From positions 44,715 through 108,714 of the IMG/VR virus record IMGVR_UViG_3300046779_000684: 64,000 bases of DNA; one strand, written 5' to 3'. Source of the DNA: a virus. Under the pieces are notes generated by a model. The model ran no database searches. It was not told the origin of the DNA and saw nothing but the letters and a program-made list of their open reading frames with translations. Positions 40,453-58,410 of the stretch are shown in pieces (the stretch's first letter is position 1; each line of letters begins with the position of its first letter). The position numbers and the translations under genes were made by a program.

Positions 40453-42438
40453 TTATAATCTAAATGGTGATGAGGTACTACTTCTAAAAGGTGAATAAGG
40501 TTTACGACTCCTAAAGTATTCTTTGAGTCGGTCATCCTCGGAAGTACTATGCACAGTAATCTTGTTAGCAAGAGTTCTAGACATAGCTAATGTCAATCCA
40601 AATGCAATAATACGGTCAACGTTAAGTTTTGGTGTAAATTTTAGTAATTCTTTTAATAGGAGAGGATCTAAAATTCTAGATACACCTAACCTAGTTTTTA
40701 CAATATTACCGTCCGCATCCCGTTCAATATCAATCTCTTCTGTAAGGTATTCAATAATTAAACCTAGCAAGTGAGCTTTAATTTCTTTGGTCATGTGAAT
40801 TCCGTAGTCACGATTAACTGTAGAGTTAGGGTGAATATCTGTCAAGAATGAAGGAGTTCGCTCAAGTACTCTAGGTCCAATGTTCTTTTCTACGCAATGC
40901 TGGATGAAACCGTAGTCCATGTTTTCACATAGGGTTTTAGCGTTGTAGTACATCAGAAGCATCTTGGTAGTTTCATACCATTGCTCAATCTTCTTAGGGC
41001 GGCCTGTGTATGCAGCTACTACTATGTTTTGCCAACCTTCACCCGAAAGATTATGAATTCTTTTGTAGATGTAGGTAGAACCCAAAGAAGTTGAGTAATG
41101 GGCTTGTGATTGTTTATATGGGTCAGTTCCTGCCGTATAAAGCCCATAAGGTGCGTCTGATATTGGGTACTCCCAAATAACTACGCAACCTTCAATATCG
41201 TCTGCTGGTTTAACTGGGAAGTTTACTACTGGCTTCTTGTCGGTGAATTTATGAGCAACCTTACCATCCTGCTTGAAGTAGAGTTCTACATTGTCTCCTT
41301 TAATGTCTTGATTGACTAACTTCTGTAATTGTTCTTGAAGAAGGTCTACTGGGAAGATGTTCTGAGACATCTCCATAAAGCACTCCTCATGAGTTAGAGG
41401 GTAGTACATTATCTCCTTCAGGTAAGCTTCTAGTCCAGATGCCTTCTTAACGTTGTCACGGTTCTTAAGAATCATCTCCTTACCCTTCTCTTCGTCACTT
41501 ACCCAGATAGTAATGTTATCTAGTTCTGAAGACTCTTCCTTGCCTAGGTATAAACCTAAAGGTTTATTTTCTCTAGGTACTTTCAAAGATTTGGTTCCTG
41601 GAATAAACAATCCGTAAGACTTGCCTGTTTCATTAGCCTCTACAGATAGAAAGTTATAAGCTTCAGGGTTATTGAAAAGTTCTTCCAAGTCCCCGGCCTT
41701 AGTCATATCTCCAGAAGTCCCAATTACAATGGGAGAACAACGCCATCCAAACTCTGAGTCAAAACAGGGAATGGTAGCCGACAGACAGTTAAGCATGTTG
41801 CCCTTACCTGCTTCTTCTAACATAAAGGAAGAGAGAGTAAGACCTGCCGCTGCCTCCGTATTGTTACCTTCGTCAAAGTTACGTTTGTTACTAGTTTTGT
41901 CCTTGAAACCTAGGGTTACTTGACGCTTCCAGTCATCCTCAATACGCAAGAATCTAAAGTACTTAGGTAAGTTCTGCAGAACCAAGTCTACCGCTTGAGT
42001 AGTGTTGCTTAAATCCGGTTGGTTTAGGGCTGAGATAAGGTTATCACTACCGTACTGAGTTACGGCCTTGTGAGCCATGTAGGAAGAGGTTATGATAGTT
42101 TTAGAGATACGACGAGATCCTACTATCACCAATCCTTTCATGCCATCAGGATGATTCTCGGCCTTACCAATAGCATCGTCAATCTGCAAATAACTATCCC
42201 AAAGTTGAGGCTTGCCTAGTTTACGTACCTTTCGAGTACCAATCAGTTCATCCTTGTATAACGTACCGTAGTTTAAGTGCCAGTAAATAAACGGAGAAAA
42301 GTAAAACCCATTGATGGTTACTCCCTCTGTAATTTTCTTGTATTCGTTATCCCAAAAAGGAACAAACTCCTCAGAGTTCTCGTCCTCTGGGATGCTCCTC
42401 ATGTTGATTAAGAATTCAGCACTGTCTGGGTTATACAT
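40453..42438 (-). CDS. terL: Terminase large subunit
   Basis: Walker A-like GSRRISKT, Walker B-like FMLEE, motif III GTSG, RNase H-like GTDPY and VDRIIA. Confidence 0.92.
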   Translation of the reverse strand: MYNPDSAEFLINMRSIPEDENSEEFVPFWDNEYKKITEGVTINGFYFSPFIYWHLNYGTLYKDELIGTRKVRKLGKPQLWDSYLQIDDAIGKAENHPDGMKGLVIVGSRRISKTIITSSYMAHKAVTQYGSDNLISALNQPDLSNTTQAVDLVLQNLPKYFRFLRIEDDWKRQVTLGFKDKTSNKRNFDEGNNTEAAAGLTLSSFMLEEAGKGNMLNCLSATIPCFDSEFGWRCSPIVIGTSGDMTKAGDLEELFNNPEAYNFLSVEANETGKSYGLFIPGTKSLKVPRENKPLGLYLGKEESSELDNITIWVSDEEKGKEMILKNRDNVKKASGLEAYLKEIMYYPLTHEECFMEMSQNIFPVDLLQEQLQKLVNQDIKGDNVELYFKQDGKVAHKFTDKKPVVNFPVKPADDIEGCVVIWEYPISDAPYGLYTAGTDPYKQSQAHYSTSLGSTYIYKRIHNLSGEGWQNIVVAAYTGRPKKIEQWYETTKMLLMYYNAKTLCENMDYGFIQHCVEKNIGPRVLERTPSFLTDIHPNSTVNRDYGIHMTKEIKAHLLGLIIEYLTEEIDIERDADGNIVKTRLGVSRILDPLLLKELLKFTPKLNVDRIIAFGLTLAMSRTLANKITVHSTSEDDRLKEYFRSRKPYSPFRSSTSSPFRL

Positions 42439-44250: not shown

Positions 44251-44266
44251 TCGGGTTGGTTTTAAA

Positions 44267-44299
44267 CAAATATACTACCCTAATAAAAAAAGTCAAGTT
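44267..44299 (-). promoter_or_regulatory. Promoter of the packaging operon
   Basis: AACTTGACT ... TATATTTG with an 18-nt spacer. Confidence 0.8.
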
Positions 44300-44347
44300 T
44301 AAAGTTATAATTCTGTAGATTAATTCTATCTTAACTTAAGAAATTAA

Positions 44348-44377
44348 TGGACAAATTTTCAAATAAAACTATATTTG
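44348..44377 (+). promoter_or_regulatory. Divergent promoter for the plus-strand gene
   Basis: TATATTTG at 44370-44377, TGGAC 18 nt upstream, ATG 15 nt downstream. Confidence 0.65.
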
Positions 44378-44392
44378 TGATAAGAGGTTACT

Positions 44393-44659
44393 ATGAAAAA
44401 AGTATCTATACCTACTAAGGAAGAGTTGATGGAGGTATTCATTGACGAACTCAAAGACTGCGAAATCGGACTAGCTGGTGAGATAGAAGCATTTAGTACT
44501 AGCCTCTACAAATCGTTTCGAAAGTATATCAAGGGAAGGGAGTATAAGGACAAGCTTTTGTATGAGTTTGTTTTTGGCACAGTAGACGACCTCCTATACG
44601 ACGACTCGCCCTCACAGAGAACTGACAGTAACTTACGTCAGCAAGCTGCAGGAGAATAA
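44393..44659 (+). CDS. Hypothetical protein, 88 aa; the only credible plus-strand gene
   Basis: Has its own promoter and sits in a gap between minus-strand genes. Confidence 0.7.
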   Translation: MKKVSIPTKEELMEVFIDELKDCEIGLAGEIEAFSTSLYKSFRKYIKGREYKDKLLYEFVFGTVDDLLYDDSPSQRTDSNLRQQAAGE

Positions 44660-44662
44660 TTC

Positions 44663-44693
44663 TTTGCTCCATTCATTTTTCTTTCTATATTTG
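44663..44693 (+). promoter_or_regulatory. Canonical Bacteroidota promoter TTTG-N19-TATATTTG with no downstream ORF
   Basis: TTTG 44663-44666, TATATTTG 44686-44693. Confidence 0.75.
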
Positions 44694-44697
44694 CAGC

Positions 44698-44930
44698 GAC
44701 ACCGTTTCAAAACGATCACCTGTGAGGGCTTATGGTAGGTAGCAGGTCAGAAGTCGGATAGTATGAGTAATCCTTAGAGGTGAAAAGAGGTTTCTCCGAT
44801 AGTGTCAAAACGTTATTGACGAAATTTGCAGTGCCCTGACCTGGCAGACCCAGGCAATAAGTGGACACAACAGGGACTTGAGGCAACTCATTTGGTAAAA
44901 ACTGCTGCACTATAAGTCGCCAACGGTATA
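44698..44930 (+). ncRNA. Candidate structured non-coding RNA (about 230 nt), family not recognised
   Basis: Own promoter, no plus-strand ORF, at least 7 short helices including a GCAA tetraloop, and a closing ACCGTT/AACGGT stem. Confidence 0.6.
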
Positions 44931-44968
44931 AAAAATCAACTTGATTTTTCGTTTCTGGAAGGAGTAAA

Positions 44969-45412
44969 TTATTTCATCCGACCAACAGCAACAGCCAAAG
45001 ACTTCTCAAGTGCTTTGGAGTAGGCTTTTTTGTTGTGGGGAATCTGGTCGACTGTCAAGAACATTGCATTTACAAACACTCGTTTCTTGGCTTGACCTTC
45101 GTAAACTTTATCTCCTGCCGACAGTTTAACCATAACAATGTAATCACGCCTCAGTAACTGGATGCCAATAATATTAACTAGTTGCTCAGGCATTGCAACT
45201 GAACAGATCTGCACTTTAAGTAGCTGACCTGTATCACAGAGGCTGAACTGGTCCGCCACTAGTTGCTCGGCAGTTGTTTGAGCACCAAACGTTATGGGTC
45301 GGCCAGCAATTTCAGAGATAGAAGCAATAGATGTTACTGAGTCTACTTTGTAGCATTGTCCTTGTAGGCTTAAAGCCAATAAGGATACGAGGGTGAATAG
45401 TATAGTTTTCAT
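44969..45412 (-). CDS. Exported protein, 147 aa, possibly a CsgG-like alpha/beta fold
   Basis: Signal peptide SLQG|Q; C-terminal AYSKALEKSLAVAV helix resembles that of the neighbouring CsgG-family protein. Confidence 0.6.
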   Translation of the reverse strand: MKTILFTLVSLLALSLQGQCYKVDSVTSIASISEIAGRPITFGAQTTAEQLVADQFSLCDTGQLLKVQICSVAMPEQLVNIIGIQLLRRDYIVMVKLSAGDKVYEGQAKKRVFVNAMFLTVDQIPHNKKAYSKALEKSLAVAVGRMK

Positions 45413-45413
45413 T

Positions 45414-46397
45414 TTAGTAAGTTACTTGTCCTGCATAACCAGGTGCTATGAGATAAAGGTTTAAGGTTCCACCTGAAGTAAGAGTAGAGGTAGTGTAAGT
45501 ACTAACCCCTGAGTAAGTCCCTCTTACATTTGTGGTGGCTGCCTTAATAGAATTGTACTGTGCGGTTGTAAAGATACGAACATCCGGTGCTGTGCGCCAG
45601 TTAGAGAATAACCCAGCTCTTCTAGCGGCTACATAGTACTTGTCTGCTACTGATATCCTTCCGTCATCGTTTACGTCAAACATATGGAAGGAAAGACCGT
45701 TACGCACAGTTTTGCCTAGGATGACATTAGATACTCCCTGAACATCAGTTAAGGAGTAAGATTGTACCCGAGTCGGTGCTGGGATTTCTATGTAGTATTC
45801 TTTGGAAGGATCGTAACTTTCAGAGATTGAATAGTAACCGTTCGAGTTAGTATAAATGGTTTTGTAAAGAGTCCAAGATGAAGTTGTTACTAGATATTCA
45901 AACTCTAGAACATAAGCAAGACTAGAAGTTCCATTTAAGTCATTCCACCTACCACCTGATACAAACTGAACGTAATCTTCGTTACCTGAGTTATTGGGTT
46001 CTCCAGAGTTCCAGTTTGTGTAAGAGTAAGTTTCTCCTGTTACCCATCTCCAAGTTCCTTCATTTACTTCGTCTGTAAGTCCTATCCATCCAGAAGGCCA
46101 CAATCCATAAATAAATCCTTGTTCTCCTGAAGAAGTGATGGCTACTAAGTGTCCTCCCATATTAGCACAATTCGACTTAGCTGTTTGCCAGTTTGCTGTT
46201 CCTGTAGAACGGTAGTAGGAGTGACCGTTGTAATTCTGTTGGTTGGTGAATCCAGTAATTGTTGAGTTAGTTCTACGGTAAAGCTTGATTGGGACATTGA
46301 CAGCACCTGAACCATTACCGTTATACATATACCCTGAGTAGGTAAACTGAGCAGACAGATCAACTGCCCAAAGTAAAAGTAAGATAAGCCACCTCAT
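45414..46397 (-). CDS. Exported C-type lectin domain + dockerin-like protein, 327 aa
   Basis: Signal peptide LSA|Q; CTLD motifs GHSYY, C...GGHLV, WIGL, EPN, WND; FDVNDDGRISVAD Ca-binding loop. Confidence 0.85.
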   Translation of the reverse strand: MRWLILLLLWAVDLSAQFTYSGYMYNGNGSGAVNVPIKLYRRTNSTITGFTNQQNYNGHSYYRSTGTANWQTAKSNCANMGGHLVAITSSGEQGFIYGLWPSGWIGLTDEVNEGTWRWVTGETYSYTNWNSGEPNNSGNEDYVQFVSGGRWNDLNGTSSLAYVLEFEYLVTTSSWTLYKTIYTNSNGYYSISESYDPSKEYYIEIPAPTRVQSYSLTDVQGVSNVILGKTVRNGLSFHMFDVNDDGRISVADKYYVAARRAGLFSNWRTAPDVRIFTTAQYNSIKAATTNVRGTYSGVSTYTTSTLTSGGTLNLYLIAPGYAGQVTY

Positions 46398-47842
46398 ATC
46401 TTTAGCTTACCTCCTAGTAAGATTTGATAATTGACAATGTCCTGGTTAGCGATGTATGTGCCTCCTCCCGTAAGTCCAAACTTAAAGGTCTTGGTAATTG
46501 AGTAGTTTAGATTCAAGAACGGAACCACGATTGGCTGGCTCTTGAATAAACTCTCTGTGTAGTATTTTGTGTAGGGGGCGTAAACTGCCGCAGCAATGAT
46601 AGTCGCATCAACATTTCTAGAGAGTTGACCTTTGTACATGAAACCAGCAATAGCCATGGTTGAGATAATCTCCTCCTCAAAGAGTTGACCATACGAACCG
46701 GCTGCTCCGTAGAGTGCCGTAAAGTTCTTCAGGGAGTTCACTCTTACAAATAGAAGTGAACTTGTGTAGGACTTCGGCATAAGACCAAGTCCTGCTGATA
46801 ATACGTTAATGTGTTTGTTGCCTTTAGAATTGGTACCAATCCAAGATTTGATACCACTTACATTGCCTATCTTAGCGTTGACCATGTAGTCAGCAGATAG
46901 ACCTATTGACGCTGTGCCGTCTCCTTTTACTCTGGTAAAGGACATTGTACCCCTTGCGTCCTGTTTGTCGCTCCTAGCGGTCTGTATGCCTACTATATCA
47001 CCTGTAACTAGGATTGCAGGCTTTTGGGTTTCTACCTTACCCTTAGCAGCAGCTTTTGCTGTAGTTCCTCCACCTGCTTTTTGGGTTTCGGTCTTTTGCT
47101 CTTCTACTTGTTCGGGAGTTTTTTCTTCAGGTTTTTTATCAGTTCCACCGCCTGAGCCATTCCCTCCGCCAGAACCATTGCCACCGTTGCCAGAAGAAGA
47201 ACCAGAGCCACTCCCAGAGCTGTTCCCAGAACCACTAGAGCCACTAGAATTATTATTTGAATTGCTTCCATCGTTATTTACTTGTCCTTCCGACGACCCC
47301 ACGGATCCCTGTCCAGATGATTGGTCACCTGAATTAGAAGTATTCCCAGAACTACCAGTAGTGCTATTGCTTCCATTACTAGTAGGATTGTCGTTCGATT
47401 TTCCATTTTTGGTCTTGATACTTACTCCGGATGTCCCTGACGTTGTAGTCCCTCCTACTGATGTACTTGATCCTAGAGAAGTCGAAGATAAGTCCAAACT
47501 GGTCAAAGAGTTCAAAGTCATTACATTATTTACTAAACCCATTACCGTGTTGGTAGAAGTTGTCGTAGTGGTTGTGGTTAGCACTCCCTCGCATGGTTTG
47601 GTTGTGCTGAAGTTTGCGTACGTAGAATTTAACCAAGAATCAAACGTACCGTCTTGCAATTCTGTATATGAAAAAGCCCTCACCTGTCCATAGTAAGATA
47701 CCATTATAGGTGAGTTCATGTCTGCACTAATGAACTTCAACTCCTTAGTGCAGGGGTCGGTGTAACTGTACATAAAGGACTGAGCGTTTAGGCCCAGTCC
47801 AATAGTACACAACAACAACAATATTTTAACTCTTAAAGACAC
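46394..47842 (-). CDS. Putative outer-membrane beta-barrel protein with a Ser/Gly-rich linker, 482 aa
   Basis: GTG start, signal peptide LNA|Q, about 100-aa low-complexity linker, alternating amphipathic strands ending YQILLGGKLKI. Confidence 0.7.
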   Translation of the reverse strand: MSLRVKILLLLCTIGLGLNAQSFMYSYTDPCTKELKFISADMNSPIMVSYYGQVRAFSYTELQDGTFDSWLNSTYANFSTTKPCEGVLTTTTTTTSTNTVMGLVNNVMTLNSLTSLDLSSTSLGSSTSVGGTTTSGTSGVSIKTKNGKSNDNPTSNGSNSTTGSSGNTSNSGDQSSGQGSVGSSEGQVNNDGSNSNNNSSGSSGSGNSSGSGSGSSSGNGGNGSGGGNGSGGGTDKKPEEKTPEQVEEQKTETQKAGGGTTAKAAAKGKVETQKPAILVTGDIVGIQTARSDKQDARGTMSFTRVKGDGTASIGLSADYMVNAKIGNVSGIKSWIGTNSKGNKHINVLSAGLGLMPKSYTSSLLFVRVNSLKNFTALYGAAGSYGQLFEEEIISTMAIAGFMYKGQLSRNVDATIIAAAVYAPYTKYYTESLFKSQPIVVPFLNLNYSITKTFKFGLTGGGTYIANQDIVNYQILLGGKLKI

Positions 47843-48515
47843 CGTTCTTGATAAGGTTTTCGATCACTTTTGTACAAGCAGTTTCAAGTGATTTACGTGT
47901 AGCCTTACCTACTGTGCTTTGCGAGAATTTCATTCCGTCTAGGGATTTAAGGAAAGACTCACCAGTTTTGGTGGACTCGCCTTCTCCTGAACCAATAAAG
48001 ATTTGACCTGTCTTTGCATCTACAAAGCGAACCTGTAACCGGATAAAAGTAGTTACAACTACTTTAGCTTTAGCTCCTTCTACAGTTTCGTCCTCATCAA
48101 CGGCAAAGTCTGCAACAGTCACATAGACAAAGTATTGTGCAGCTTTAATTTTTCCTTTACCATCAATAGGTTCTTCAAAGACTCCTTTTTTAGAAGCCTT
48201 GAATTGGGTCACCATCCTTTCCTTGATTTCACCCTTTTCTTCAGTAAATACAAAACGATTTGTTTCATCTAAATAATCTAATACGGATTCTGCAAAGCCT
48301 AGGCCAACGTTCTTCTCTTGCAAGTCAGGATACATAGCCAATACTTTGGTCATGTCCATGCTGATTACCTGTACTGTTCTTTTGATAGAATCAGTGTAAC
48401 CAGATACAGTAGAGATGTCTGCTTTCTCAATAACCTCATCCTCGGTTGTGGTCTTCATAGAACCACAACCATAGATAAGGATTACTAATAATAGACTACC
48501 AAGGATCTTCTTCAT
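47826..48515 (-). CDS. CsgG/HfaB-family lipoprotein (start re-called at MKKILG, 229 aa)
   Basis: Lipobox LIYG|C; RFVFTE...ERM, AQYFVYVTVADF and LQVRFVDAKTGQI motifs. Confidence 0.75.
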   Translation of the reverse strand: MKKILGSLLLVILIYGCGSMKTTTEDEVIEKADISTVSGYTDSIKRTVQVISMDMTKVLAMYPDLQEKNVGLGFAESVLDYLDETNRFVFTEEKGEIKERMVTQFKASKKGVFEEPIDGKGKIKAAQYFVYVTVADFAVDEDETVEGAKAKVVVTTFIRLQVRFVDAKTGQIFIGSGEGESTKTGESFLKSLDGMKFSQSTVGKATRKSLETACTKVIENLIKNGVFKS

Positions 48516-48807
48516 CAGCTTGAGGTTTAGAAGCAGGAGCTGGGGCAGGAGCGGCAGCTGGTGCAGCCTTTTCCTTAATGATAACGGTCTTACCGCCACC
48601 AGTGTTTGCCTGTTGCTTCTGTTCGTTGTTCGTAGTGATGTTGATTACGGGTGCGGGAGCAGCTACGGCCGCTGGAGTTTCTGGGGCATCTTCACCACCA
48701 CCTAAGTGAGTAGCAAACCAAGCACCACCGGCAGTTACCGCTGTGGTAATTGCTCCAATGATTGCTTTCTTTACACCAGACATTCCGCTTTCTTGTTCTT
48801 CTGACAT
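48496..48807 (-). CDS. Single-pass membrane protein with a Pro/Ala-rich tail (start re-called at MSEEQ, 103 aa)
   Basis: AIIGAITTAVTAGGAWF hydrophobic segment followed by PAPA repeats. Confidence 0.65.
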   Translation of the reverse strand: MSEEQESGMSGVKKAIIGAITTAVTAGGAWFATHLGGGEDAPETPAAVAAPAPVINITTNNEQKQQANTGGGKTVIIKEKAAPAAAPAPAPASKPQADEEDPW

Positions 48808-48811
48808 AATA

Positions 48812-49162
48812 TTATGGGTTAGTTGTATTTGACAATGATACTCCGTCTTCCTCATCTACCTTTTGGATAAGCATTTTGTCTCTGTCTTCAGAGTTGAACC
48901 AGTAGTCAACTACTTTGTTCAAGTTACCTACAAATGCTCCGAAAAGGATGAGTAGCATTTCTTTCCAGGATTCTTGGATTTCTACTCCAAAGAATACAGC
49001 TGAATTGATTCCTGCAATAATGAAGAAGAACAGCCCCAACACAATGGCAGTGATACGCCAGCGATTCGCTTGCATTTGCTGCAACATGTAGTAGAAGCGA
49101 TTGTTCATCGGTACTTCTACAGGCTCGGCCTGAGTAATACCTAATTTTTCTTTTAGTTTCAT
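48812..49162 (-). CDS. Two-TM membrane protein (holin-like topology), 116 aa
   Basis: Two hydrophobic helices, GAFVG...VVDYWF. Confidence 0.6.
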   Translation of the reverse strand: MKLKEKLGITQAEPVEVPMNNRFYYMLQQMQANRWRITAIVLGLFFFIIAGINSAVFFGVEIQESWKEMLLILFGAFVGNLNKVVDYWFNSEDRDKMLIQKVDEEDGVSLSNTTNP

Positions 49163-51051
49163 ATGATTAATAGTTTAGAGTCTAGGACTTGTTTTTCAGT
49201 TTTAAGAGTTAAGATGTAAACTCCGTCAGGTAATCTTTCTAAGTCCACGCTGTACTTATAGTTTCCAACAGGCATGTGCTTGTCCAAGATATTCTGAACC
49301 AACTGACCTACCTCATTGTAAAGAGACAAGTTGATGTCAGATTCTTCAGCTATCTTAAACTGTACTTGAATGGCACCTTCTGAAGGATTTGGGAATGCTA
49401 CTAGGTCACTTACCTGGTCGATAGATACCAATCCTTTTCTACGAACCTCAATAATGCCCATAGCAGGATTAATATTCATATCCTTAGCCTTGTTATCACC
49501 TACGTACTTTTCTGCCGTCCAGATGGCTGCTGTGGCCCAAGAATCTTGTGGTTTCTTAGCAATGAACTGGAGAGTGAATACTTGTTCTCCGTCTTTCAGT
49601 AAATTAGCATTGGTCAAGTCAGCACCTCCCCAAGATACAATCCCGTTAGAAGGGTTTGTGTAGGCAGTCCACTTCATGATTTTTTCAGTAACCTCAATCT
49701 GTTTGAAAGACAAGTAAGCTGTGTCGTACTTAAGATCTAACTGGAGGGCAGTAAGGTCTTTGCCATTAGTCAAAACTTTAACTGGTACGCTTACCAGGTT
49801 GCCGTCCTCTACTTTGATTTTAGGCATATTGATTTCTACTGTCTCAAGAGTAGGATCATCGTAACTTACTGTTTTGTCAATGATGTAATTCTTAGCGTTT
49901 GCTGGGTTAATGATTTTGATAGGAGTCAAACGAGCACGCTTAAATCCTGTCTGGTTTGCATCACCACGCACGTTAATGTAGTAAGAGATAGAATCTTTTC
50001 CATCAACACTATAAGTAAAGTTGGTTACGCCTGTGTAAGTAGAAGTAAGGTTTGTGGCAGAACCGTTGATTGCGTTAAACTCTGATACAGTGAAAAACAA
50101 GATATCTTTCTTAGAGTTAGGCCATGCAGAGAATCTACCTGCCAAACGACCATACACACCGTATACGTCAGCGACAGTAATCAATCCGTCAGATCCGTTT
50201 ACGTCAAAAGAGTAGAAGTCAAATCCTGTAGCAGCGTATTGACCTAATACAGCTTGGTTAATCTTTTGTGCATCGGCAGTTGAGAACACAGCACCAGGAG
50301 TCATAGTATCTCCTTTAACAGCCATACGTACATCCCAGTAAGTAGTATCCAAGAATTTACGGAAGACAACAACACCAACAGAGTTAGTAGCCAAGGTCTG
50401 TACGGTTGTCCAAGTAGAAGAACCGGGAGCTTTTTTCTCTAGAGATACCCAAAGATTCTTAGCGTCTGTTCCAGTAGTGTTCATGAACTTAGCAGCAAAG
50501 CGAAGTACTTTTTGGTTGAAACGACCACCATAAGAATAAACTACCAATGTAGTATCGTTACCGTAGTTGGTAGCTGCTCTGTTTGTGAATGACTTTAAGC
50601 CACTGATTTTTAAAGTTTTAATAGAATCTAAGTTGTTCCAGACAGCTTCTGCTGCGTGAGTAAATGTAAGGTCAAAAGTAGCTCCGTTAGAATAACTGAA
50701 TGTAGCACTTGAACCTGTGTAAGCAAGAGTTACGGTCAAGAATCCTTGTGCGTTACTGTCAACATACTGAAGATACTGATCTGATGTAGAGATTTTCAAC
50801 GAAGGAACAACAGCAGTAAAGGCTGTGTTGTCGTAGAATACTCTGTACTGAAGACCGGTGATTTTCTCACTAGTTCCAGAATTGTAAAAGTAAAGAGGAG
50901 CAACAGTTTTACCAGCAGTTGTGGTTGCTACTTGATACCCTGAATCAATTGCGATCCAGTGACCAGTGCCAGGAGAAGTGGTAGCACTCTGTCCAAAGAG
51001 GCTAGCCGTGAGCAGGAATAACCCTACTACAAGCGATTGTATTTTTTTCAT
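49159..51051 (-). CDS. T9SS cargo: signal peptide, cohesin-like, beta-sandwich, dockerin-like, cohesin-like and T9SS CTD domains, 630 aa
   Basis: LFG|Q signal peptide; GLQYRVFYD and ALQLDLKYD cohesin-like motifs; DVNGSDGLITVAD; C-terminal FPNP...LYN..GQLV...LPDGVYILTL...KLLI type-A CTD. Confidence 0.85.
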   Translation of the reverse strand: MKKIQSLVVGLFLLTASLFGQSATTSPGTGHWIAIDSGYQVATTTAGKTVAPLYFYNSGTSEKITGLQYRVFYDNTAFTAVVPSLKISTSDQYLQYVDSNAQGFLTVTLAYTGSSATFSYSNGATFDLTFTHAAEAVWNNLDSIKTLKISGLKSFTNRAATNYGNDTTLVVYSYGGRFNQKVLRFAAKFMNTTGTDAKNLWVSLEKKAPGSSTWTTVQTLATNSVGVVVFRKFLDTTYWDVRMAVKGDTMTPGAVFSTADAQKINQAVLGQYAATGFDFYSFDVNGSDGLITVADVYGVYGRLAGRFSAWPNSKKDILFFTVSEFNAINGSATNLTSTYTGVTNFTYSVDGKDSISYYINVRGDANQTGFKRARLTPIKIINPANAKNYIIDKTVSYDDPTLETVEINMPKIKVEDGNLVSVPVKVLTNGKDLTALQLDLKYDTAYLSFKQIEVTEKIMKWTAYTNPSNGIVSWGGADLTNANLLKDGEQVFTLQFIAKKPQDSWATAAIWTAEKYVGDNKAKDMNINPAMGIIEVRRKGLVSIDQVSDLVAFPNPSEGAIQVQFKIAEESDINLSLYNEVGQLVQNILDKHMPVGNYKYSVDLERLPDGVYILTLKTEKQVLDSKLLII

Positions 51052-51503
51052 GGTTTGTATAATTGCATTTTTTCATAAGCATTTGCCGTTAACCATGGCT
51101 CTGGGGTTGGTAGTTTTTGGATGAAGGATAATTCGTACAGGTAGCATCTATATTCTTCTTCCTTTTCCGTAAAGACCGCATCCTCTAGCATAAATACTAG
51201 ATGAAGGCTCTCATGGATTAATACAGCCGCCAAGTTATTGATTGAGTTTAACTTGATGTCTGCATCTGCTATCAGTATGGTGTAGTCTCCTTCAAGTACA
51301 CCGTTGGAAGAAAAAGAACTTTTCCAAAAGTCGATTCTTTGGCACACATCCTTAAAGACTAGATACTTCTCAGGATCAGTAGTCTTTATGAGTTGTATAG
51401 CTGAGTCGACTTTTAAATCCCAACCGTCCCCTGCTTTAGCAATTGTTTGTGCTTGGCAAGGAACGGTTAGGAGTATTAAAAGACTGATAAACAGTCTAGA
51501 CAT
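51048..51503 (-). CDS. Exported zincin metallopeptidase, 151 aa
   Basis: Signal peptide CQA|Q; LIHESLH followed by EEYRCY. Confidence 0.7.
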   Translation of the reverse strand: MSRLFISLLILLTVPCQAQTIAKAGDGWDLKVDSAIQLIKTTDPEKYLVFKDVCQRIDFWKSSFSSNGVLEGDYTILIADADIKLNSINNLAAVLIHESLHLVFMLEDAVFTEKEEEYRCYLYELSFIQKLPTPEPWLTANAYEKMQLYKP

Positions 51504-52141
51504 TATTTTTTCTTGGCAGCTTTCTTAGCTTCACCCTTTGCTTTGTCTGCGGCAATGAAGTCACCAGACTCAATCAAAGTGTAAGTGAAAGAGTTACCAT
51601 GGATACCGCTTGCCAATTTGCAGAACTCAAGAAACTGGTTAAAGTCTCTCTCACGCTTGAACACTTGGCAACCTTCGCTCCAGTTTTCTACGAAAGTAGA
51701 ATCTGCACCAGCCTTGTGGATGTTGATACCAAAGATGCCTTCTTGGATTTTAGACTCATCATAAGTCATGTCCTTGTTAGCATCACGATAAACCTTCACG
51801 TTAGCTTTTTGCTTAAGAGCTTGGTATTTACCTTGGTGCAAGCCCAACTGGTGTGAACCACGGTATTGGCCAGGAACCAAACGAGCAACACCTGCTGCGT
51901 TGTGGAACTGCATAACACCCTTAGTACCTGGGTCAGTAGTTGCCTGCCATTGGTGAAACTGCCAAACACCTCCTACTTTGAAAGACACAGTCATAGTGTC
52001 ATCAAACAAGTTAGTAACGTCGTTACCTGTAGAAGAGTTACGTACTCCGATAATATTGATATCGTAGTCTTTTGCGCCATCAAAGTAAACATAGCCCTTG
52101 GCTTTTACTGCGGCTTCGATTTGTTCTCTAGTATAATTCAT
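51503..52141 (-). CDS. Putative endolysin, YkuD/L,D-peptidase-like, 212 aa
   Basis: INIH-x10-WSEGCQV His/Cys motif; no signal peptide; directly downstream of a holin-like gene. Confidence 0.65.
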   Translation of the reverse strand: MNYTREQIEAAVKAKGYVYFDGAKDYDINIIGVRNSSTGNDVTNLFDDTMTVSFKVGGVWQFHQWQATTDPGTKGVMQFHNAAGVARLVPGQYRGSHQLGLHQGKYQALKQKANVKVYRDANKDMTYDESKIQEGIFGINIHKAGADSTFVENWSEGCQVFKRERDFNQFLEFCKLASGIHGNSFTYTLIESGDFIAADKAKGEAKKAAKKK

Positions 52142-52143
52142 GA

Positions 52144-52398
52144 TTATTCAGATTCGCTAGGAGTAGATTCTGGCTTCTTCATGATCTTCTCTACAGAAGT
52201 CAAGCCCAAACAACCAAATGCCAACAAAGCAACAGCGTCTACCAAAGGAGTAGAAGGAGCAAAGTGAGCTTCAGTAAAAGAGTTGGCGTACAAAGTAGCG
52301 CACAAAGTCAATGTGCAAAATAAGCCGCACAAACGTTTCATGGAGACATTACCCTTCTCATCTTTGAAAAGTCCTCCAATAAAGTTTACAAATTCCAT
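52144..52398 (-). CDS. Putative holin, 84 aa
   Basis: Two TM segments, S.KR motif, charged C-terminus, first gene after its own promoter. Confidence 0.65.
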   Translation of the reverse strand: MEFVNFIGGLFKDEKGNVSMKRLCGLFCTLTLCATLYANSFTEAHFAPSTPLVDAVALLAFGCLGLTSVEKIMKKPESTPSESE

Positions 52399-52420
52399 AA
52401 GTTCAATTTTTTGTTCGAAA

Positions 52421-52452
52421 CAAAAATAAACTTTTGAAAAAATAAGTCAAGT
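52421..52452 (-). promoter_or_regulatory. Promoter of the lysis/envelope operon
   Basis: CTTGACT ... TATTTTTG with an 18-nt spacer. Confidence 0.75.
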
Positions 52453-52488
52453 AAAAAAAGAAAAACCCCCAAGGAGGTACTTGAGGGT
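52453..52488 (-). terminator. Rho-independent terminator
   Basis: CCCTCAAG-TACCTC-CTTGGGGG-TTTTTCTTTTTTT. Confidence 0.8.
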
Positions 52489-53391: not shown

Positions 53392-53424
53392 CAAATATAA
53401 TATTTTAAATTATAAAGTCAAGTT
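53392..53424 (-). promoter_or_regulatory. Promoter, probably producing a leaderless mRNA
   Basis: AACTTGACT ... TATATTTG (18-nt spacer); the ATG begins 5 nt after the final G. Confidence 0.75.
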
Positions 53425-56400
53425 AAAATACGTTAGTAATAATACCACCATTTACTTGGATGTTCTGTTGTCCAGGAGGGTTACTTGGAATCATAATATT
53501 ACCTGTCCATCCATCTACGTTTCCTACCTTATACGCTAGTCCATTGATTACTCCAGCTACATCAAGCATGTTTCCTACGTCTGTAGTAGTGCCGATAAGA
53601 AGATTACCTGTGTTATTGGAGATACGCATATTCTCTACGTTGGCTGTTCCGAAGACCATATCGGTTCCAGAGTAAGTTCCAATTAAGAATGCACCTGATC
53701 CTCCTAAGTTAGCCAATAAGGATGCACTTCTTACAAGGGAGATTCCCATCTGAGACCCCGAAACTCCATCTCCAAATACACGATAAACCACATTATCATT
53801 CTGGTTGTTCATAGCAACCCAAGCAGCAGAAGCATTTGTACCTGTGGCAGTAATTCTTCCAAAGATGTTGGCGTTGCTTGAGTCAATGATGTGCAACTTA
53901 TCGGTAGGTGTAGCAGTGCCGATACCTACTCTGTTGTTGGTAGCGTCTACATACAAAGTGTCTGTGTCTACAACAAAGTTACTTTGCACTCTTACTGTTC
54001 CATTTACATCTAATTTGTATCCTGCATCAGTTGTTGTTCCGATAAGAATATTACCATTTCCTTTTGCGATTAAACGCTTAATTCCATTTGTGGAAAGTTC
54101 TAAATCATTTACTCCGTAAACGTAAAGACCAATGTTAGCAGTAGACACCCCGTAGATACCACCATCAATTCCAAAAATTCCCCTATCAGTTCCACTGTGT
54201 TGAAACCTAATTGTAGAAGTTCCTGGAGAATTGTTAAACACAGCACTATTGTTGAAGGTTGCAAGTTGAGCAAAAGTAGAAGTGCTATTAGCAGTAAATG
54301 CACCAGTTGATGTCAATGCTCCTGTGGAAGTTATATTTGCAGGAAACGTAACGTTTTTACTTCTATCGTAAGACTCAGCATTTCTTTTACCTGCTGGATA
54401 CCCTCCTACCCACTCAATAGAGTATATGCCAAAAGCATTTGTATTAGAGTTATGAGTGGTTTCAAAAGTAATTCTTACTTGGCTGTATTGGGAAGCATTG
54501 TTACTATATGGAATATTTGAGTGGGGAATATAAGCATGACCTGGCCAGTTATTCGTCGTAGTCGGCCCTGTAATAGTCGTCCAACCGTTAGTGTTGTGAT
54601 AAGCCTCAATTTTAATTGTTACGTTGTTACCATTGGTAGAATTGAAGACATAGAGAGCATTTAAGAATATGTAACCCGTAGTTCCTACTACATTCCAAGT
54701 AAGGCGATAACCACCATAGGTTCCTATTGTTCCAGTAGGTATTGCATTGAAGCTAGTTCCTTCCCCTTCTCCACGCATCATATCCCCTAAATTGGCTGCG
54801 GAAGCTCTTGTAGAAGTTGTCCAAGTAACTCCGTCAGTACTTTCTTCTTGAAGAGTTGGAGAGATAAATCTAAACTTATTATTGAACTGTCCGTGAAACA
54901 TAGCCATTTCTCGAACAGTAGGATCACCTAAGTTATTCCTTAGTGTATTATTGGGAACTTGATACTCAGCCTGTATTTCTCCTAGTGTCCAAGAAACGTT
55001 TCCAGAACCATTTACAGATTTTCCTGTGTTACCGATTGTTAAAGTCCTAGCATTACCCCAAACAGCCGTAGTAATATCTCCAGAGCCGTTAAAAGAAGTA
55101 CCGTTGATGTTTCTTGCTGTTTGTAAGGTAGTTGCCGTGGCAGCGTTACCAGTAATATTACTGTCTGTAAATGCAACATCTTTAAAAGTAGAATAAGCAG
55201 ATGCAGAACCCCAAGTCTGTTGGTAAATACGCATACCAATTACATCCTTACGGAAGAGAACTAAATTATCCAATCCTCCTGATGCATCTGTGTAAGAACG
55301 TAAGTGTAAAAAGTCAGCGTATGGGCTATTATTGTTGTTAGTCCAAGAAGTAAATCCAAACTTTAACTGCCCTGCTATACCTTCGCTTGGACTTATGGTT
55401 CTGTTGTCCTCTCCTAGGAGTCTTCCTGAATAGCCACTAATATTAGTTACCGAAGTTAAGTAGGTATTACTATCTACAGATCCATCAGCCTTTAGGAACT
55501 GAGCAGAAGTTCCTCCACTCTTAACAAAAGAGTTAGCAGTCAAAGAACTTACAAATCTTCCTGTGCCGTTAACATCTAGCTTATACCCTACATCAGTAGT
55601 AGTTCCTACTAGAACATTTCCTCCATCTGGTTGGAGTGATAGAGGAGTCCAACTTACACCGTAGTTTCCCGACTTAATGAATCCAAAACCATTACTATTA
55701 GTATCGTATCCAAGAATCATTCTTTTTCCTGGAGTAGTAGAGCCCTCTAAAGATAGTTGAGCTGTTCCAGGATTAATATCTCCACTTTTAGTTATATCAG
55801 CTGATATAGTAGTTTTAAATGATGGACTAGTACTTCCTATACCAACATAGCTATTGGTATCAATGGTCAGGTCTGGAGAAGATCCGTTAGAAGCTAAGTA
55901 TAATTTATTTCCGCTTGTGGCATACACTGTTGCTTGGCCTGTATCCCAAGTTAATCCTCCATAAGCAGTTGAGTAAGCACCCCAGTATCCAATAGAAGTT
56001 CCATCAGTCCATAAAGCATTTGATATAAATGTACCATTAACGTGTAACTTAGCAGACGGACTATTAGTGCCAATACCCCAGTTACCTACAGAATCAATGA
56101 TACCTCTTTGTGTACCTCCAAGAGTATGGGTAGTAGCATTATGTGTCCAAAACTGAATTTCGGTGGCAGGATTAGTCTCGTATATATTACCACCAATAAC
56201 TACTGCATTGTAAGAAGTCGTAGACAATCCTCCAATCAAAGCAAATCCCTGTGGTTGACTAGTAGCATTAAAGTGAGTACCTGTGAGATAGGACCACTTA
56301 GAACTGCCTTCTCCCACATTACCCATCAGAATATTACCACCCGATTGGTTGCCTATCCCTCTTACATTTATTCTACCTGTCGTAGAGTTTCCACGATTCG

Positions 56401-56707
56401 TAACTGTGGCTAAGGTATCTGTTTCTGTATACCCACTAATTGGGGTAAAGCCTAACGCAGTTGTTACGTCAGAACCACTAAGAGTCACTGCTCCTACCCT
56501 AGTATTAAAACTAGTTACCAAGTTAGCTGTACTCAATCCTATAGTAACATCCCCCGTTCCTGAATCCACTCCTGTGCTACTGATAGTTAAAGGAGAGTTT
56601 ACTAATAACTTAGTGATAAGGGCACTGCCCGACAGGGTAGTGTTTATATCTACCCTACGGACTGAGCCATCCTCTATTAATGTAGTTCCTATCTGCGTTC
56701 TAGCCAT
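53423..56707 (-). CDS. Tail fibre protein, 1094 aa
   Basis: Repeated GN(V/W)GIGT.SP...L.V.G knuckles and TARNINGTSF.G..DI shaft repeats. Confidence 0.85.
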   Translation of the reverse strand: MARTQIGTTLIEDGSVRRVDINTTLSGSALITKLLVNSPLTISSTGVDSGTGDVTIGLSTANLVTSFNTRVGAVTLSGSDVTTALGFTPISGYTETDTLATVTNRGNSTTGRINVRGIGNQSGGNILMGNVGEGSSKWSYLTGTHFNATSQPQGFALIGGLSTTSYNAVVIGGNIYETNPATEIQFWTHNATTHTLGGTQRGIIDSVGNWGIGTNSPSAKLHVNGTFISNALWTDGTSIGYWGAYSTAYGGLTWDTGQATVYATSGNKLYLASNGSSPDLTIDTNSYVGIGSTSPSFKTTISADITKSGDINPGTAQLSLEGSTTPGKRMILGYDTNSNGFGFIKSGNYGVSWTPLSLQPDGGNVLVGTTTDVGYKLDVNGTGRFVSSLTANSFVKSGGTSAQFLKADGSVDSNTYLTSVTNISGYSGRLLGEDNRTISPSEGIAGQLKFGFTSWTNNNNSPYADFLHLRSYTDASGGLDNLVLFRKDVIGMRIYQQTWGSASAYSTFKDVAFTDSNITGNAATATTLQTARNINGTSFNGSGDITTAVWGNARTLTIGNTGKSVNGSGNVSWTLGEIQAEYQVPNNTLRNNLGDPTVREMAMFHGQFNNKFRFISPTLQEESTDGVTWTTSTRASAANLGDMMRGEGEGTSFNAIPTGTIGTYGGYRLTWNVVGTTGYIFLNALYVFNSTNGNNVTIKIEAYHNTNGWTTITGPTTTNNWPGHAYIPHSNIPYSNNASQYSQVRITFETTHNSNTNAFGIYSIEWVGGYPAGKRNAESYDRSKNVTFPANITSTGALTSTGAFTANSTSTFAQLATFNNSAVFNNSPGTSTIRFQHSGTDRGIFGIDGGIYGVSTANIGLYVYGVNDLELSTNGIKRLIAKGNGNILIGTTTDAGYKLDVNGTVRVQSNFVVDTDTLYVDATNNRVGIGTATPTDKLHIIDSSNANIFGRITATGTNASAAWVAMNNQNDNVVYRVFGDGVSGSQMGISLVRSASLLANLGGSGAFLIGTYSGTDMVFGTANVENMRISNNTGNLLIGTTTDVGNMLDVAGVINGLAYKVGNVDGWTGNIMIPSNPPGQQNIQVNGGIITNVF

Positions 56708-56709
56708 AA

Positions 56710-58410
56710 TTATGGTTTTAAGTAATTAATTCTAATTTTATCTGTTGGTGTTGGTGTAAACAAGAAGGTAATTGTCAAAGGTGTAAGACCGCCTACAGTG
56801 TAGTCGTTACCTGCACCTGACTCCATCAATACACCATTCAAAAATACTTGTTCTGTGTTAGAAACTGCGTTTCCTGTGCAAGTAAATGTAGTAACGACTC
56901 CGTTAGGTGCTGGGGTAGGAGTTTCTCTTACAGTGTAGTTTGCACTGTTCATAGTTCCTGAAGGCAAGTCACCTGTTGACAAAGTAGTACCAGAGGTTAC
57001 ACGACCTTTTGCATCTGTTGTTACTTTGGTGTAAGTACCTGCAGTACCCACAGAAGCAAGAGTTACGCTGATTGAAGTTGTACCACTACCACTTACATCG
57101 TTACTCAATGTAATTGTTTGGTTTCCAGTAATATAAGTAGCGGTATCGAGTGACCAAGTATTCGCAGCGGTCTTCTTCAAGAATCCTGAAGTACCAGCCA
57201 AGGCAGCAATTGCATCTAAGTCAGCATCCCAAGCCTGTACGTTGGTTCCAATAGCAACTCCCAAGGTAGTTCTTGCAGTCGCTGCATCAGCATCGTCAAT
57301 CAAAGAACGACCAAACGTAGTCAAAGAAGCCATTGCAAATGTATCTACACCCGTAGCGTAAATCAACTGATTTGCAGCTGTAACCAAACCTGCCAAAGCA
57401 GTCAAGGTAGCGTCTAGACCCTGTTTACCATTTAATTGAGTTTGAATAGCAGAAGTTACACCTGACACATAACTAAGTTCAGCAGAAGTCACAGTAGATA
57501 CGGCAACTTTACCAGAACCATCCGATACCAAGGCACGGGATGCAGTCAAGTTAGAAGTAACTATTGTAGAAGCACCTCCCGTAATGGCTGCTTGAGCACG
57601 AGCATTCGTAAAAAATAAGTTAGTAGTACCTTCTGTTACGTTGTCTGAGTTTTCTGCACTACCTGCAGTAACACGTCCGTAGGCATCTACAGTTACACGA
57701 CCATAAGTACTTGCAGTAACACCTGTAGTAGCCAAGTCAATGTTGTCAGCGTTAACTACGATACGAGCAGAGGAAGCAGTCCCTACATCAAGCGTATTTC
57801 CTGTTTTAGTAAGACCTGCACCTGCTGTTACTTGACCTGCACCAGAGAACTGGGTAAAGGTAAGTGCAGTTGTATCTAGGGTGATAGTACCGTTGGTAGT
57901 AAGTACCCATCCTGAATCTCCGTTTACAGTACCTTCTTCTACGAAAGTAAACATGCCTGGAGTCACCTCAGAAGACGCATCTGCATCGGTTGCTCTAGTC
58001 CATCCACTTGACGCAACTAAATAGATACCGTTTTGAGAACCAGTAGATTGGTCTTTTACCAAGACACGATCACCTACTGATAGAGAAACACCATCTATAG
58101 TTTGAGTTCCTGATAGAGTAATGTTAGCAGTAGTTGCTGCACGCACTGAATCTTTAATATCTAGTGCTTGTTTAACAGCATCTACGTATCCTTTAGTGGC
58201 AGCATCCGTAGAAGAAGTAGGAGTGCCTAAGTTAGTAATTTTAAAACCTCCGTGGGATTGGTCAGAAGTAGGGACTACTGAACCATCCTTCTTGAGGAAG
58301 TTGGCACCATCTGCTAGTTTTGAACTAGCTATAGCGGCAGAGGCATCGATGTCCGCATTCACAATTGTGAGGGCATCGAGTTGGGATTTTTTAATTTTAG
58401 TTATAGCCAT
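56710..58410 (-). CDS. Tail fibre/shaft protein, 566 aa
   Basis: DAATKGYVD, SVRAATTANITLSGTQTIDG...RVLVKDQ...NGIY, V.VDA.GRVT.G repeats. Confidence 0.85.
   Translation of the reverse strand: MAITKIKKSQLDALTIVNADIDASAAIASSKLADGANFLKKDGSVVPTSDQSHGGFKITNLGTPTSSTDAATKGYVDAVKQALDIKDSVRAATTANITLSGTQTIDGVSLSVGDRVLVKDQSTGSQNGIYLVASSGWTRATDADASSEVTPGMFTFVEEGTVNGDSGWVLTTNGTITLDTTALTFTQFSGAGQVTAGAGLTKTGNTLDVGTASSARIVVNADNIDLATTGVTASTYGRVTVDAYGRVTAGSAENSDNVTEGTTNLFFTNARAQAAITGGASTIVTSNLTASRALVSDGSGKVAVSTVTSAELSYVSGVTSAIQTQLNGKQGLDATLTALAGLVTAANQLIYATGVDTFAMASLTTFGRSLIDDADAATARTTLGVAIGTNVQAWDADLDAIAALAGTSGFLKKTAANTWSLDTATYITGNQTITLSNDVSGSGTTSISVTLASVGTAGTYTKVTTDAKGRVTSGTTLSTGDLPSGTMNSANYTVRETPTPAPNGVVTTFTCTGNAVSNTEQVFLNGVLMESGAGNDYTVGGLTPLTITFLFTPTPTDKIRINYLKP

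Follow-up and report, generated by a model that had tools for sequence, protein, structure and literature searches.

The 64,000-nucleotide (nt) stretch analyzed here (the window) covers positions 44,715 to 108,714 of the IMG/VR virus record IMGVR_UViG_3300046779_000684, an uncultured viral genome of 110,154 bp with a CheckV completeness of 93%. Positions 44969-51503 of the window hold a cassette of eight genes, all on the minus strand and directly behind a holin gene and an endolysin gene, with gaps of 4 nt or less or overlaps between them. The cassette combines a putative type IX secretion system (T9SS) cargo protein, which ends in a C-terminal sorting domain (CTD), with a lectin-bearing adaptor, an outer-membrane (OM) lipoprotein, a predicted OM barrel, two membrane proteins that contain predicted transmembrane (TM) segments, and two further secreted proteins. 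From upstream to downstream the genes encode the following products, with lengths in amino acids (aa).

51048-51503, minus strand: g151, secreted protein of 151 aa, putative minimal zincin with invariant HESxH and EEE..CYxYEL
49159-51051, minus strand: g630, secreted scaffold of 630 aa with signal peptide, cohesin-like stretch, immunoglobulin (Ig)-like plus dockerin-like region, cohesin and T9SS type-A CTD
48812-49162, minus strand: g116, inner-membrane protein of 116 aa with acidic C-terminus and holin-like topology
48496-48807, minus strand: g103, predicted single-pass membrane protein of 103 aa, its gene overlapping that of g229 by 20 nt at the 3' end
47826-48515, minus strand: g229, OM lipoprotein of 229 aa, its alpha/beta fold CsgG/LpoB-like and lacking the membrane hairpins of CsgG
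46394-47842, minus strand: g482, protein of 482 aa with signal peptide, N-domain, disordered linker, charged segment and C-terminal OM beta-barrel fold
45414-46397, minus strand: g327, secreted adaptor of 327 aa without CTD, a C-type lectin inserted in an Ig-like domain and followed by a dockerin-like module
44969-45412, minus strand: g147, small secreted protein of 147 aa, present in every cassette version including that of the cultured phage immuto

Genes throughout the region lie on the minus strand, and ten co-oriented open reading frames (ORFs) run from the holin (52144-52398) to g147 (44969-45412). Holin and endolysin are 2 nt apart and the endolysin gene overlaps g151 by 1 nt; 4-nt overlaps join g151 to g630 and g630 to g116, a 4-nt gap separates g116 from g103, and overlaps of 20 nt (g103/g229), 17 nt (g229/g482) and 4 nt (g482/g327) lead to a 1-nt gap between g327 and g147. 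Comparison with homologues revised two start codons, so that g229 starts at 48515 (229 aa) and g103 at 48807 (103 aa). Targeting signals were judged by inspection and hydropathy; each of the eight products has one, whether signal peptide, lipobox or TM helices, and those of g151, g630, g482, g327 and g147 are N-terminal and of the cleavable type. The original prediction, made from the letters of the window, had described eight tightly coupled genes for exported or membrane proteins behind holin and endolysin, five of the products being signal-peptidase-I-type substrates, one a lipoprotein and two inner-membrane proteins; our analysis confirms this layout, the TM segment of g103 being weak.

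A search of IMG/VR with g229 returned 124 contigs, in 80 of which gene order was assessed. The order g151-g630-g116-g103-g229-g482-adaptor-g147 is kept almost everywhere in the 80, and because the same set recurs in the same order in about 80 independent viral contigs, the block is not a chance arrangement. Its constant core across loci is g630 (as one gene or two), g103, g229, g482 and g147. The same set is found in the cultured Flavobacterium phage immuto (160 kb), at identities of 49% for the lectin, 44% for the lipoprotein, 27% for the barrel and 29% for g147, and marine TARA contigs carry a version with 34% lipoprotein identity. Metagenomes from at least 12 studies of freshwater or rivers contain the stretch. 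At 90% identity there are 786 clusters of the lipoprotein, 1254 of the barrel and 2086 of g116, the g116 homologues being unnamed throughout, and an exhaustive search with g229 gave 164 clusters at 50% identity. Relatives infect Flavobacterium or were binned with Flavobacterium or Sediminibacterium.

The cassette is carried by two lineages that are not related to each other. The first (crAss-like-type, 110-kb) shares the terminase type of the window, the window enzyme being 29-39% identical to its counterparts in crAss-like phages and in Cellulophaga phages phi17:2 and phi4:1. The other consists of T4-like myoviruses, among them L044, L071 and L077 (165-176 kb), a 254-kb contig and immuto, all of which have the Gp23 capsid protein; no homologue of the window terminase was found in any of these five. 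Between the window lineage and the 165-176-kb phages, g229 is 84-88% identical, whereas in carrier loci retaining the terminase its identity is 72-76% for the most part and up to 92% in a few closer relatives. This pattern argues for transfer of the whole cassette between lineages.

Among 30 evaluable relatives fetched by their terminase, 23 have the cassette and seven do not. The terminases of these seven are 75-82% identical to that of the window, and holin and/or endolysin are kept; the slot is empty in L110 and L111 and holds five unrelated small genes in L114. Since 7 of 30 relatives lack the cassette and keep lysis genes, we regard it as an accessory insert in a hypervariable slot and not as a required part of lysis.

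Only 12 loci matched among the genomes of 185,579 prokaryote species. In five, contigs that had been binned into Bacteroidota metagenome-assembled genomes (MAGs) hold the cassette completely or partly, and the two of these contigs that were checked, L087 and L088, are phage-like, with an endolysin on both and a Gp23 capsid gene on that of L087. The other seven loci have distant lipoprotein homologues only, at 29-37% identity and in unrelated bacterial contexts. We rejected the idea of a bacterial counterpart of the cassette, as the scan gave only distant CsgG-like lipoproteins beside caspase-domain or unrelated genes. Phages thus keep the set together, whereas bacteria do not (about 80 loci versus distant lipoproteins only), and on this check the original prediction is supported.

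T9SS CTD, cohesin, GEVED and CsgG-like domains are typical of Bacteroidota cell-surface proteins, and on that ground the cassette could be a recent host-derived fragment without function for the phage, the situation that the original prediction had named as speaking against itself. The data contradict it. The ratio of nonsynonymous to synonymous substitution rates (dN/dS) is 0.02-0.25 for all ten genes, lowest for g229, with synonymous sites near saturation, which indicates strong purifying selection; the ORFs are intact in about 80 loci from two phage lineages, and the cassette occurs in the prokaryote collection on the five MAG-binned contigs only, the two checked ones being phage-like. We therefore give this explanation practically no credence. 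Comparison across genomes instead shows the cassette to be a conserved, mobile and accessory operon of aquatic Bacteroidota phages, with all of its products predicted to be directed to the envelope.

Some loci hold further ORFs within or beside the cassette. A GIY-YIG-like motif marks the N-terminus of ∼200-aa ORFs that lie between g229 and g482, between g116 and g103 or between holin and endolysin; judging from the motif, these are probably homing endonucleases.

L077:8747-9346; L024:8725-9366; L064:5480-6082; L010:3930-4517; L006:3614-4312: GIY-YIG-like ORFs (motif only)

A trio of genes for proteins of 196, 156 and 86 aa, without signal peptides, lies between g116 and g103 in L064 (6316-7665) and L018 (6307-7656), and the same trio fills the slot after the endolysin in the cassette-less L114 (1564-2913); it could be a mobile unit of its own. 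In L020 (7788-8426) and L053 (11499-12779), both T4-like, ORFs that lack a signal peptide and start with a tail-fibre-like region lie between the adaptor gene and g147, which hints that this junction may be a hot spot for host-recognition genes.

The largest product, g630, has the makings of a surface scaffold. Two of its domains exceed curated cut-offs.

49474-49836, minus strand: cohesin domain 2 of g630 (PF00963 above cut-off)
49165-49395, minus strand: T9SS type-A C-terminal sorting domain of g630 (PF18962 and TIGR04183)

By inspection g630 begins with a Sec signal (basic start, hydrophobic core, A/G-x-Q-type end), followed by a weak cohesin-like stretch at residues ∼44-147 (E value 0.002, 18.8 bits, under the cut-off), Ig-like and dockerin-like parts at ∼205-372, the second cohesin at 406-526 and the CTD at 553-629. 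Cohesin 2 matches PF00963 with an E value of 4.4e-10 in the whole protein and 2.6e-8 as a domain alone (40.3 bits, cut-off 24.1). The CTD occupies the extreme C-terminus and matches both PF18962 (1.4e-11, 44.9 bits, cut-off 27) and TIGR04183 (4.1e-10, 39.5 bits, cut-off 23).

The adaptor g327 has its C-type lectin domain at residues 68-163 (nt 45909-46196; PF00059 1.6e-17, 64.6 bits, cut-off 22.6). The EPN and WND sugar/Ca motifs are present and are also kept in immuto, and the lectin heads would be expected to bind host-type surface sugars. The C-terminus of g327 and the middle of g630 have in common a module of ∼160 aa, made of Ig-like strands and one DVNxDG EF-hand loop with helices on its flanks. 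Three domain calls of the original prediction, the T9SS CTD, the cohesin and the C-type lectin, thus hold above curated cut-offs; its dockerin call fails, being under the Pfam threshold with a single EF-hand loop, and 'dockerin-like' is the most that we would call the shared module. Across loci the Ig-like and dockerin-like part of the adaptor is constant and the glycan-binding head is swapped: most loci have a C-type lectin, L044 and L068 have a GEVED domain (2.7e-14), and L071 and L077 have another insert of 200 aa. In immuto the counterpart of g630 is split into two genes, one for cohesin 1, Ig-like and dockerin-like parts (no CTD) and the other for cohesin 2 and the CTD, and this split suggests that the dockerin part is functionally linked to the anchor. 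A cohesin on a virion protein was also considered as a docking site for the adaptor and rejected; the sole match, at 36144-36350 in the major head protein (13.8 bits, E value 0.004), is probably spurious.

No protein of the cassette is better conserved than the lipoprotein g229 (median identity 85%, dN/dS 0.02-0.08), and its gene is the only lipobox ORF in the 110-kb genome. The lipobox cysteine, Cys17, follows a hydrophobic core and is kept in all homologues. Pfam CsgG matches the window protein with an E value of 0.021 in a truncated 219-aa form and gives no match to the full 229-aa form, while among 43 aligned family members (homologues plus the window protein) 16 match CsgG (best 3.7e-23) and 7 match LpoB. 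The family profile finds CsgG in the PDB at 2e-5. The AlphaFold2 (AF2) model, with a predicted local distance difference test (pLDDT) score of 77.5, contains a folded domain of ∼200 aa that Foldseek matches to CsgG at 1e-6 and further to FlgT, GNA1162, PelC, CT253 and LptE.

In CsgG two amphipathic beta-hairpins, TM1 and TM2, build a 36-strand barrel. In a profile alignment to CsgG the TM1-equivalent hairpin of g229 is ∼10 residues shorter and contains many Asp, Glu and Lys residues, and the model has no second (TM2) hairpin after residue 184. Because the TM1 equivalent is short and acidic and TM2 is absent, g229 cannot be classed as a CsgG-type secretion pore, and of the CsgG-family lipoprotein claimed by the original prediction the fold stands, by family profile and AF2 model, and the secretion pore does not. 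Although g229 resembles the CsgG/CsgF curli channel and CsgG/HfaB in its lipobox and periplasmic alpha/beta fold, it differs from the CsgG channel in the short acidic TM1 equivalent, in the absence of TM2 and in the absence of CsgE, CsgF and CsgA partners; no Pfam or NCBIfam match to CsgE, CsgF or CsgA/B was obtained on any cassette protein. The other fold matches of g229 include PelC and LptE, two lipoproteins that partner a barrel, and the uncharacterized lipoprotein GNA1162. We also looked for homologues of g229 fused to a barrel; several long homologues exist, none of them similar to g482.

The gene adjoining g229 encodes g482. Its signal peptide precedes a conserved N-domain of ∼90 aa with two conserved cysteines in the alignment, a disordered linker at residues ∼95-240 (poly-Thr and then rich in Ser, Gly and Asn) whose length varies among phages, and a charged segment, likewise conserved, in which a helix is predicted (residues 243-252). 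The conserved C-terminal domain of ∼210 aa (residues ∼274-482, nt 46397-47023) is modelled by AF2 as 12 antiparallel strands (residues 276-480), at low confidence overall and with a pLDDT of 55-68 in the barrel. The top Foldseek matches (TamA, NanC/KdgM and PelB) and VIA matches (Z up to 13.9 for CymA, PelB, PgaA and OmpG) are OM barrels throughout. Modelling therefore supports an OM beta-barrel fold class for the C-terminus, as had been proposed, and no finer assignment such as autotransporter-like. In a comparison with type Va autotransporters, the 12 strands and preceding helix of g482 are modelled at low pLDDT and autotransporters are among many matched OM barrels; a Pfam scan of g482, the Autotransporter HMM included, gave no match.

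PelC lies beneath a separate barrel, PelB, and LptE likewise beneath LptD. The cassette resembles both pairs in that a gene for a small alpha/beta lipoprotein (g229) adjoins one for an OM barrel (g482), and PelC, LptE and the PelB barrel all turn up among the fold matches of g229 and g482. It differs from them in having no sequence homology to either pair and no polysaccharide or lipopolysaccharide export genes, in the number of barrel strands (∼12 predicted in g482 versus 16 or 26 in PelB/LptD), and in the N-terminal domain that g482, unlike PelB or LptD, carries on a long disordered stalk.

The remaining four proteins are g116, g103, g147 and g151. The second most conserved protein of the cassette is g116 (70-92% identity), which is present in most loci; residues 34-63 are above the hydropathy threshold, a second TM segment was placed at ∼68-85 by eye, and the family matches are weak only, to SLATT and phrog_38564. 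The sequence of g103 runs from a Gly/Ala/Thr-rich putative TM segment through a Pro/Ala-rich spacer to conserved VINxxxNxxxQQ and TxIIKE motifs and an invariant EEDPW-type C-terminal end; the TM segment is weakly hydrophobic, below the hydropathy threshold, and the tail is rich in Pro, Ala, Asn and Gln. By comparison g147 evolves fast (29-84% identity), and it gave no Pfam match and nothing significant in a PDB profile search. Atlas leads (Lipoprotein_16 and DUF4410) raised the idea of g147 as a CsgG paralogue, which we rejected on an hhalign probability of 3.8% against the g229 family.

In g151 the HESxH and EEE..CYxYEL motifs are invariant in the alignment. Three of 16 homologues match SprT-like (best 4.5e-5) and others match Tox-MPTase2 or DUF5700, whereas the window protein has no family HMM match and nothing significant in a PDB profile search; feature-based Atlas leads were DUF6647 and eCIS_core. 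The protease of the original prediction thus keeps its invariant HExxH motif, with weak family support. The gene is optional, being missing in immuto and several T4-like loci.

The position of the cassette ties it to the lysis genes, which in the window are the following.

52144-52398, minus strand: holin-like protein of 84 aa with two TM segments, the first by eye and the second above the hydropathy threshold
51503-52141, minus strand: endolysin of 212 aa, matching phrog_3000 (3.7e-36) and phrog_33083 'endolysin' (9e-12)

The holin has no family HMM match, and its adjacency to the endolysin is kept in relatives at 64-95% identity. Among the loci that have 3 kb or more of flanking sequence on both sides, 43 of 44 have a holin or endolysin no farther than 3 kb from the cassette, usually within 100 nt. 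The order is holin-endolysin-cassette in the window lineage and cassette-holin-endolysin in the T4-like phages, where other holin and endolysin families are found, and in L089 the holin lies within the cassette. In immuto the endolysin is ∼27 kb from the cassette, and in marine contigs the cassette adjoins replication genes.

These positions raise the possibility that the cassette is an accessory of lysis at the OM step, in which g103, g229 and the barrel g482 would bridge the membranes in the manner of spanins and destabilize the OM after the endolysin has acted, with scaffold and lectin as passengers. Such a role would account for the adjacency on either side of differing holin and endolysin families, for the holin inside the cassette of L089, and for g229 and g116 being the most conserved proteins. 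The gene context is also spanin-like: four genes downstream of the endolysin, the gene of an N-terminal-TM protein overlaps that of an OM lipoprotein, as in overlapped two-component spanins, the lipoprotein gene is the only one in the genome, and no other spanin candidate was seen in the lysis cluster of the window. The proteins themselves fit less well. Compared with Rz/Rz1, which the cassette resembles in its site beside holin and endolysin and in this gene overlap, g103 has a Pro/Ala-rich periplasmic part and no coiled-coil, and g229 is a globular protein of ∼200 aa that far exceeds known o-spanins, which are small (tens of residues) and Pro-rich.

The relatives without a cassette bear on the spanin-like role from both sides. 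In three of them, L108 (6748-7423), L132 and L135, the slot after the endolysin holds genes of 101 and 121 aa; the 101-aa protein has an N-terminal TM segment and a coiled-coil, charged tail and looks like an i-spanin, and the 121-aa protein is secreted. Neither gene was found in the window genome or in any cassette-bearing locus. On the other hand, a spanin would be expected in all close relatives, and 7 of 30 in the same lineage keep lysis genes without the cassette, the slot being empty in L110 and L111 and filled with unrelated genes in L114. The distant endolysin of immuto and the replication genes beside the marine cassettes also speak against it, and the T9SS scaffold and swappable lectin heads would be left unexplained. 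We consider a spanin-like role improbable, and the seven close relatives that keep holin and/or endolysin without the cassette weaken the earlier suggestion of OM disruption by the cassette as a substitute for spanins.

We tentatively favor another reading, in which the cassette is a mobile surface-remodelling module that combines a cohesin scaffold anchored through the T9SS with exchangeable glycan-binding adaptors and an OM lipoprotein-barrel core, and probably serves to mask host surface glycans. In a first sub-module, g630 would be exported by the host T9SS and fixed on the cell surface, and g327 adaptors would dock through their dockerin-like modules on its cohesins, bringing lectin heads for host-type sugars. 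The second would be the constant core, made of the inner-membrane proteins g116 and g103, the lipoprotein g229, the stalked barrel g482 and the small secreted g147, and would be inserted in the envelope late in infection. There g229 might partner the g482 barrel, as PelC does PelB or LptE does LptD, and the Pro/Ala-rich g103 may reach g229 from the inner membrane. The most likely purpose would be to cover glycans or receptors on the infected cell and on its debris, or to mask them, which would lead to superinfection exclusion and less re-adsorption of progeny.

We favor masking because the module is accessory and horizontally traded and its variable part is the glycan-binding head, because the module would be anchored on the producing cell and expressed with late genes, and because the one previous account of phage T9SS cargo likewise places it in variable islands. 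The close relatives that do without the cassette argue that it is not lysis machinery itself. In a more specific version, g229 and the 12-strand barrel would form a new OM route or docking site for the CTD-less adaptors, coupled to the two inner-membrane proteins, a lectin coat on the T9SS cohesin scaffold would block receptors, and the unit would be traded among phages with heads matched to host glycans; we hold this version to be rather unlikely.

Parts of this picture have precedents. In a study of 'Cryophage', phage-encoded type-A T9SS cargo was described in flexible genomic islands and proposed to alter the surface of the infected cell or to act in superinfection exclusion or competition (Bellas et al. 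2020, PMC7468147). That cargo likewise has a type-A T9SS sorting domain and lies in a variable, accessory part of the genome, whereas it consists of single enzyme or PA14 genes and the present system is a multi-gene operon with cohesin, dockerin-like module, CsgG-fold lipoprotein, barrel and two inner-membrane proteins, which, unlike the Cryophage cargo, moves as a unit between unrelated phages. The cassette also resembles cellulosomes in pairing an anchored, cohesin-bearing protein with dockerin-type modules that have variable heads. Cellulosomes differ in their duplicated dockerin segment, surface-layer homology (SLH) or sortase anchor and enzyme heads, against a single EF-hand loop, a T9SS CTD and lectin or GEVED heads in a viral setting. 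Single-gene phage envelope proteins encoded near lysis or tail genes are known in the T5 Llp and phi80/N15 Cor lipoproteins, the lambda OM barrel Lom and the lambda lipoprotein Bor; Llp and Cor block receptors, sheltering progeny from debris and excluding superinfection. The likeness to Llp, Cor, Lom and Bor is that OM lipoproteins and barrels are phage encoded, with no sequence or fold relation to the cassette shown; they are small single proteins acting on one protein receptor, as opposed to a set of eight genes in which lectin heads and T9SS display are combined.

Several observations weigh against the masking interpretation. The dockerin-like module scores 14-15 bits against Pfam Dockerin_1 (E value 0.02-0.05, cut-off 22.9), has one conserved DVNxDG loop in place of the duplicated Ca loop and helix segment, and found no dockerin in a profile search of the PDB. 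Complex prediction for g630 cohesin 2 (aa 395-548) with residues 168-327 of g327 scored 0.00, with a partner pLDDT of ∼50, and gives no verdict. Export of g630 through the T9SS, dependence on the T9SS and sugar binding are suggested by domain content. The CTD-less adaptors have no explained route across the OM, and the best-conserved proteins, g229 and g116, have no assigned role in the masking model. Finally, the adjacency to lysis genes in 43 of 44 loci and the holin inside the cassette of L089 could reflect a lysis-linked role instead.

The surface-display parts on which masking would depend could instead serve adhesion or aggregation, the main idea of the original prediction, a lectin-tipped scaffold sticking infected cells to hosts or to polysaccharide particles so that progeny are released beside new hosts. 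The EPN motif of the lectin is typical of mannose/N-acetylglucosamine-type binding, the heads differ among phages, and the hosts of related phages are Flavobacteriia that we take to be particle-associated. Sequence cannot tell binding 'in trans' from masking 'in cis', and expression late, just before lysis, would leave aggregation little time; we rate adhesion as an unlikely function.

The missing OM route suggests a further alternative, in which g327, g147 and the zincin g151 would pile up in the periplasm, be freed by lysis and then act on host glycans, debris or virions. Shiga toxin genes, which sit beside lambdoid lysis genes, offer a model for such lysis-released cargo. All three proteins have Sec signals, no CTD and no known OM route, and their genes adjoin holin and endolysin and are probably cotranscribed with them. 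Secreted Endonuclease_NS-type nucleases, found inside the marine cassette (L082:5050-5670) and adjoining the cassette as immuto gene 12 (L001:8572-9150) and in L077 (13455-14030), would fit the same scheme. It would leave unexplained the constant and best-conserved parts, that is, the T9SS anchor, the lipoprotein, the barrel and the two inner-membrane proteins, and the dockerin-like module favors docking on a scaffold over free release; we find this alternative very doubtful.

Literature searches on the cassette, on phage cohesin/dockerin, on phage CsgG and on Por_Secre_tail in phages gave only two reports, PMC7468147 and PMC7003362. In the latter, 'csgG' ranks first in abundance among the virulence-type genes of marine phages' genomes, a rank for which the cassette may account. 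Phages with single envelope or T9SS cargo genes are known, and an eight-gene envelope operon is undescribed in the searched literature. The cassette is abundant, strongly constrained and exchanged among unrelated phages of Flavobacteriia-type hosts. Such hosts are key degraders of aquatic organic matter, and knowing what the cassette does would show how their viruses rewire the host surface late in infection. The cultured carrier immuto, which grows on Flavobacterium strain LMO8, makes the question directly testable.

Around the ten-gene block, the neighboring genes and signals are as follows.

53423-58410, minus strand: tail-fibre-like genes, upstream of the holin-to-g147 block
52465-52488, minus strand: terminator-like hairpin with T-run, upstream of the holin
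∼52418-52425, minus strand: TATTTTTG box, a match to the -7 consensus of Bacteroidota (TAnnTTTG), lying ∼20 nt upstream of the holin start
40453-42438, minus strand: large terminase, downstream of the block, beyond four small genes
35154-36698, minus strand: major head protein, which with a portal protein lies downstream of the block, together with the large terminase

The interval 52418-52488, with the hairpin and then a promoter-like region, is likely to hold the start of the transcription unit. Within the block there are weak terminator-like matches only, graded as no excess over shuffles; the region has 13 such matches against 8.0 ± 2.7 in shuffled sequence. One true metatranscriptome gave only four short contigs with 85-90% identity, and two 'RNA-Seq' runs are probably DNA. 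On the 3' side of the operon, ∼720 nt (44251-44968) are ORF-poor, and an 88-aa ORF on the opposite strand in this interval (44393-44659) is conserved in relatives, with 68% identity in L003 and a further copy in L108 (7836-8105).

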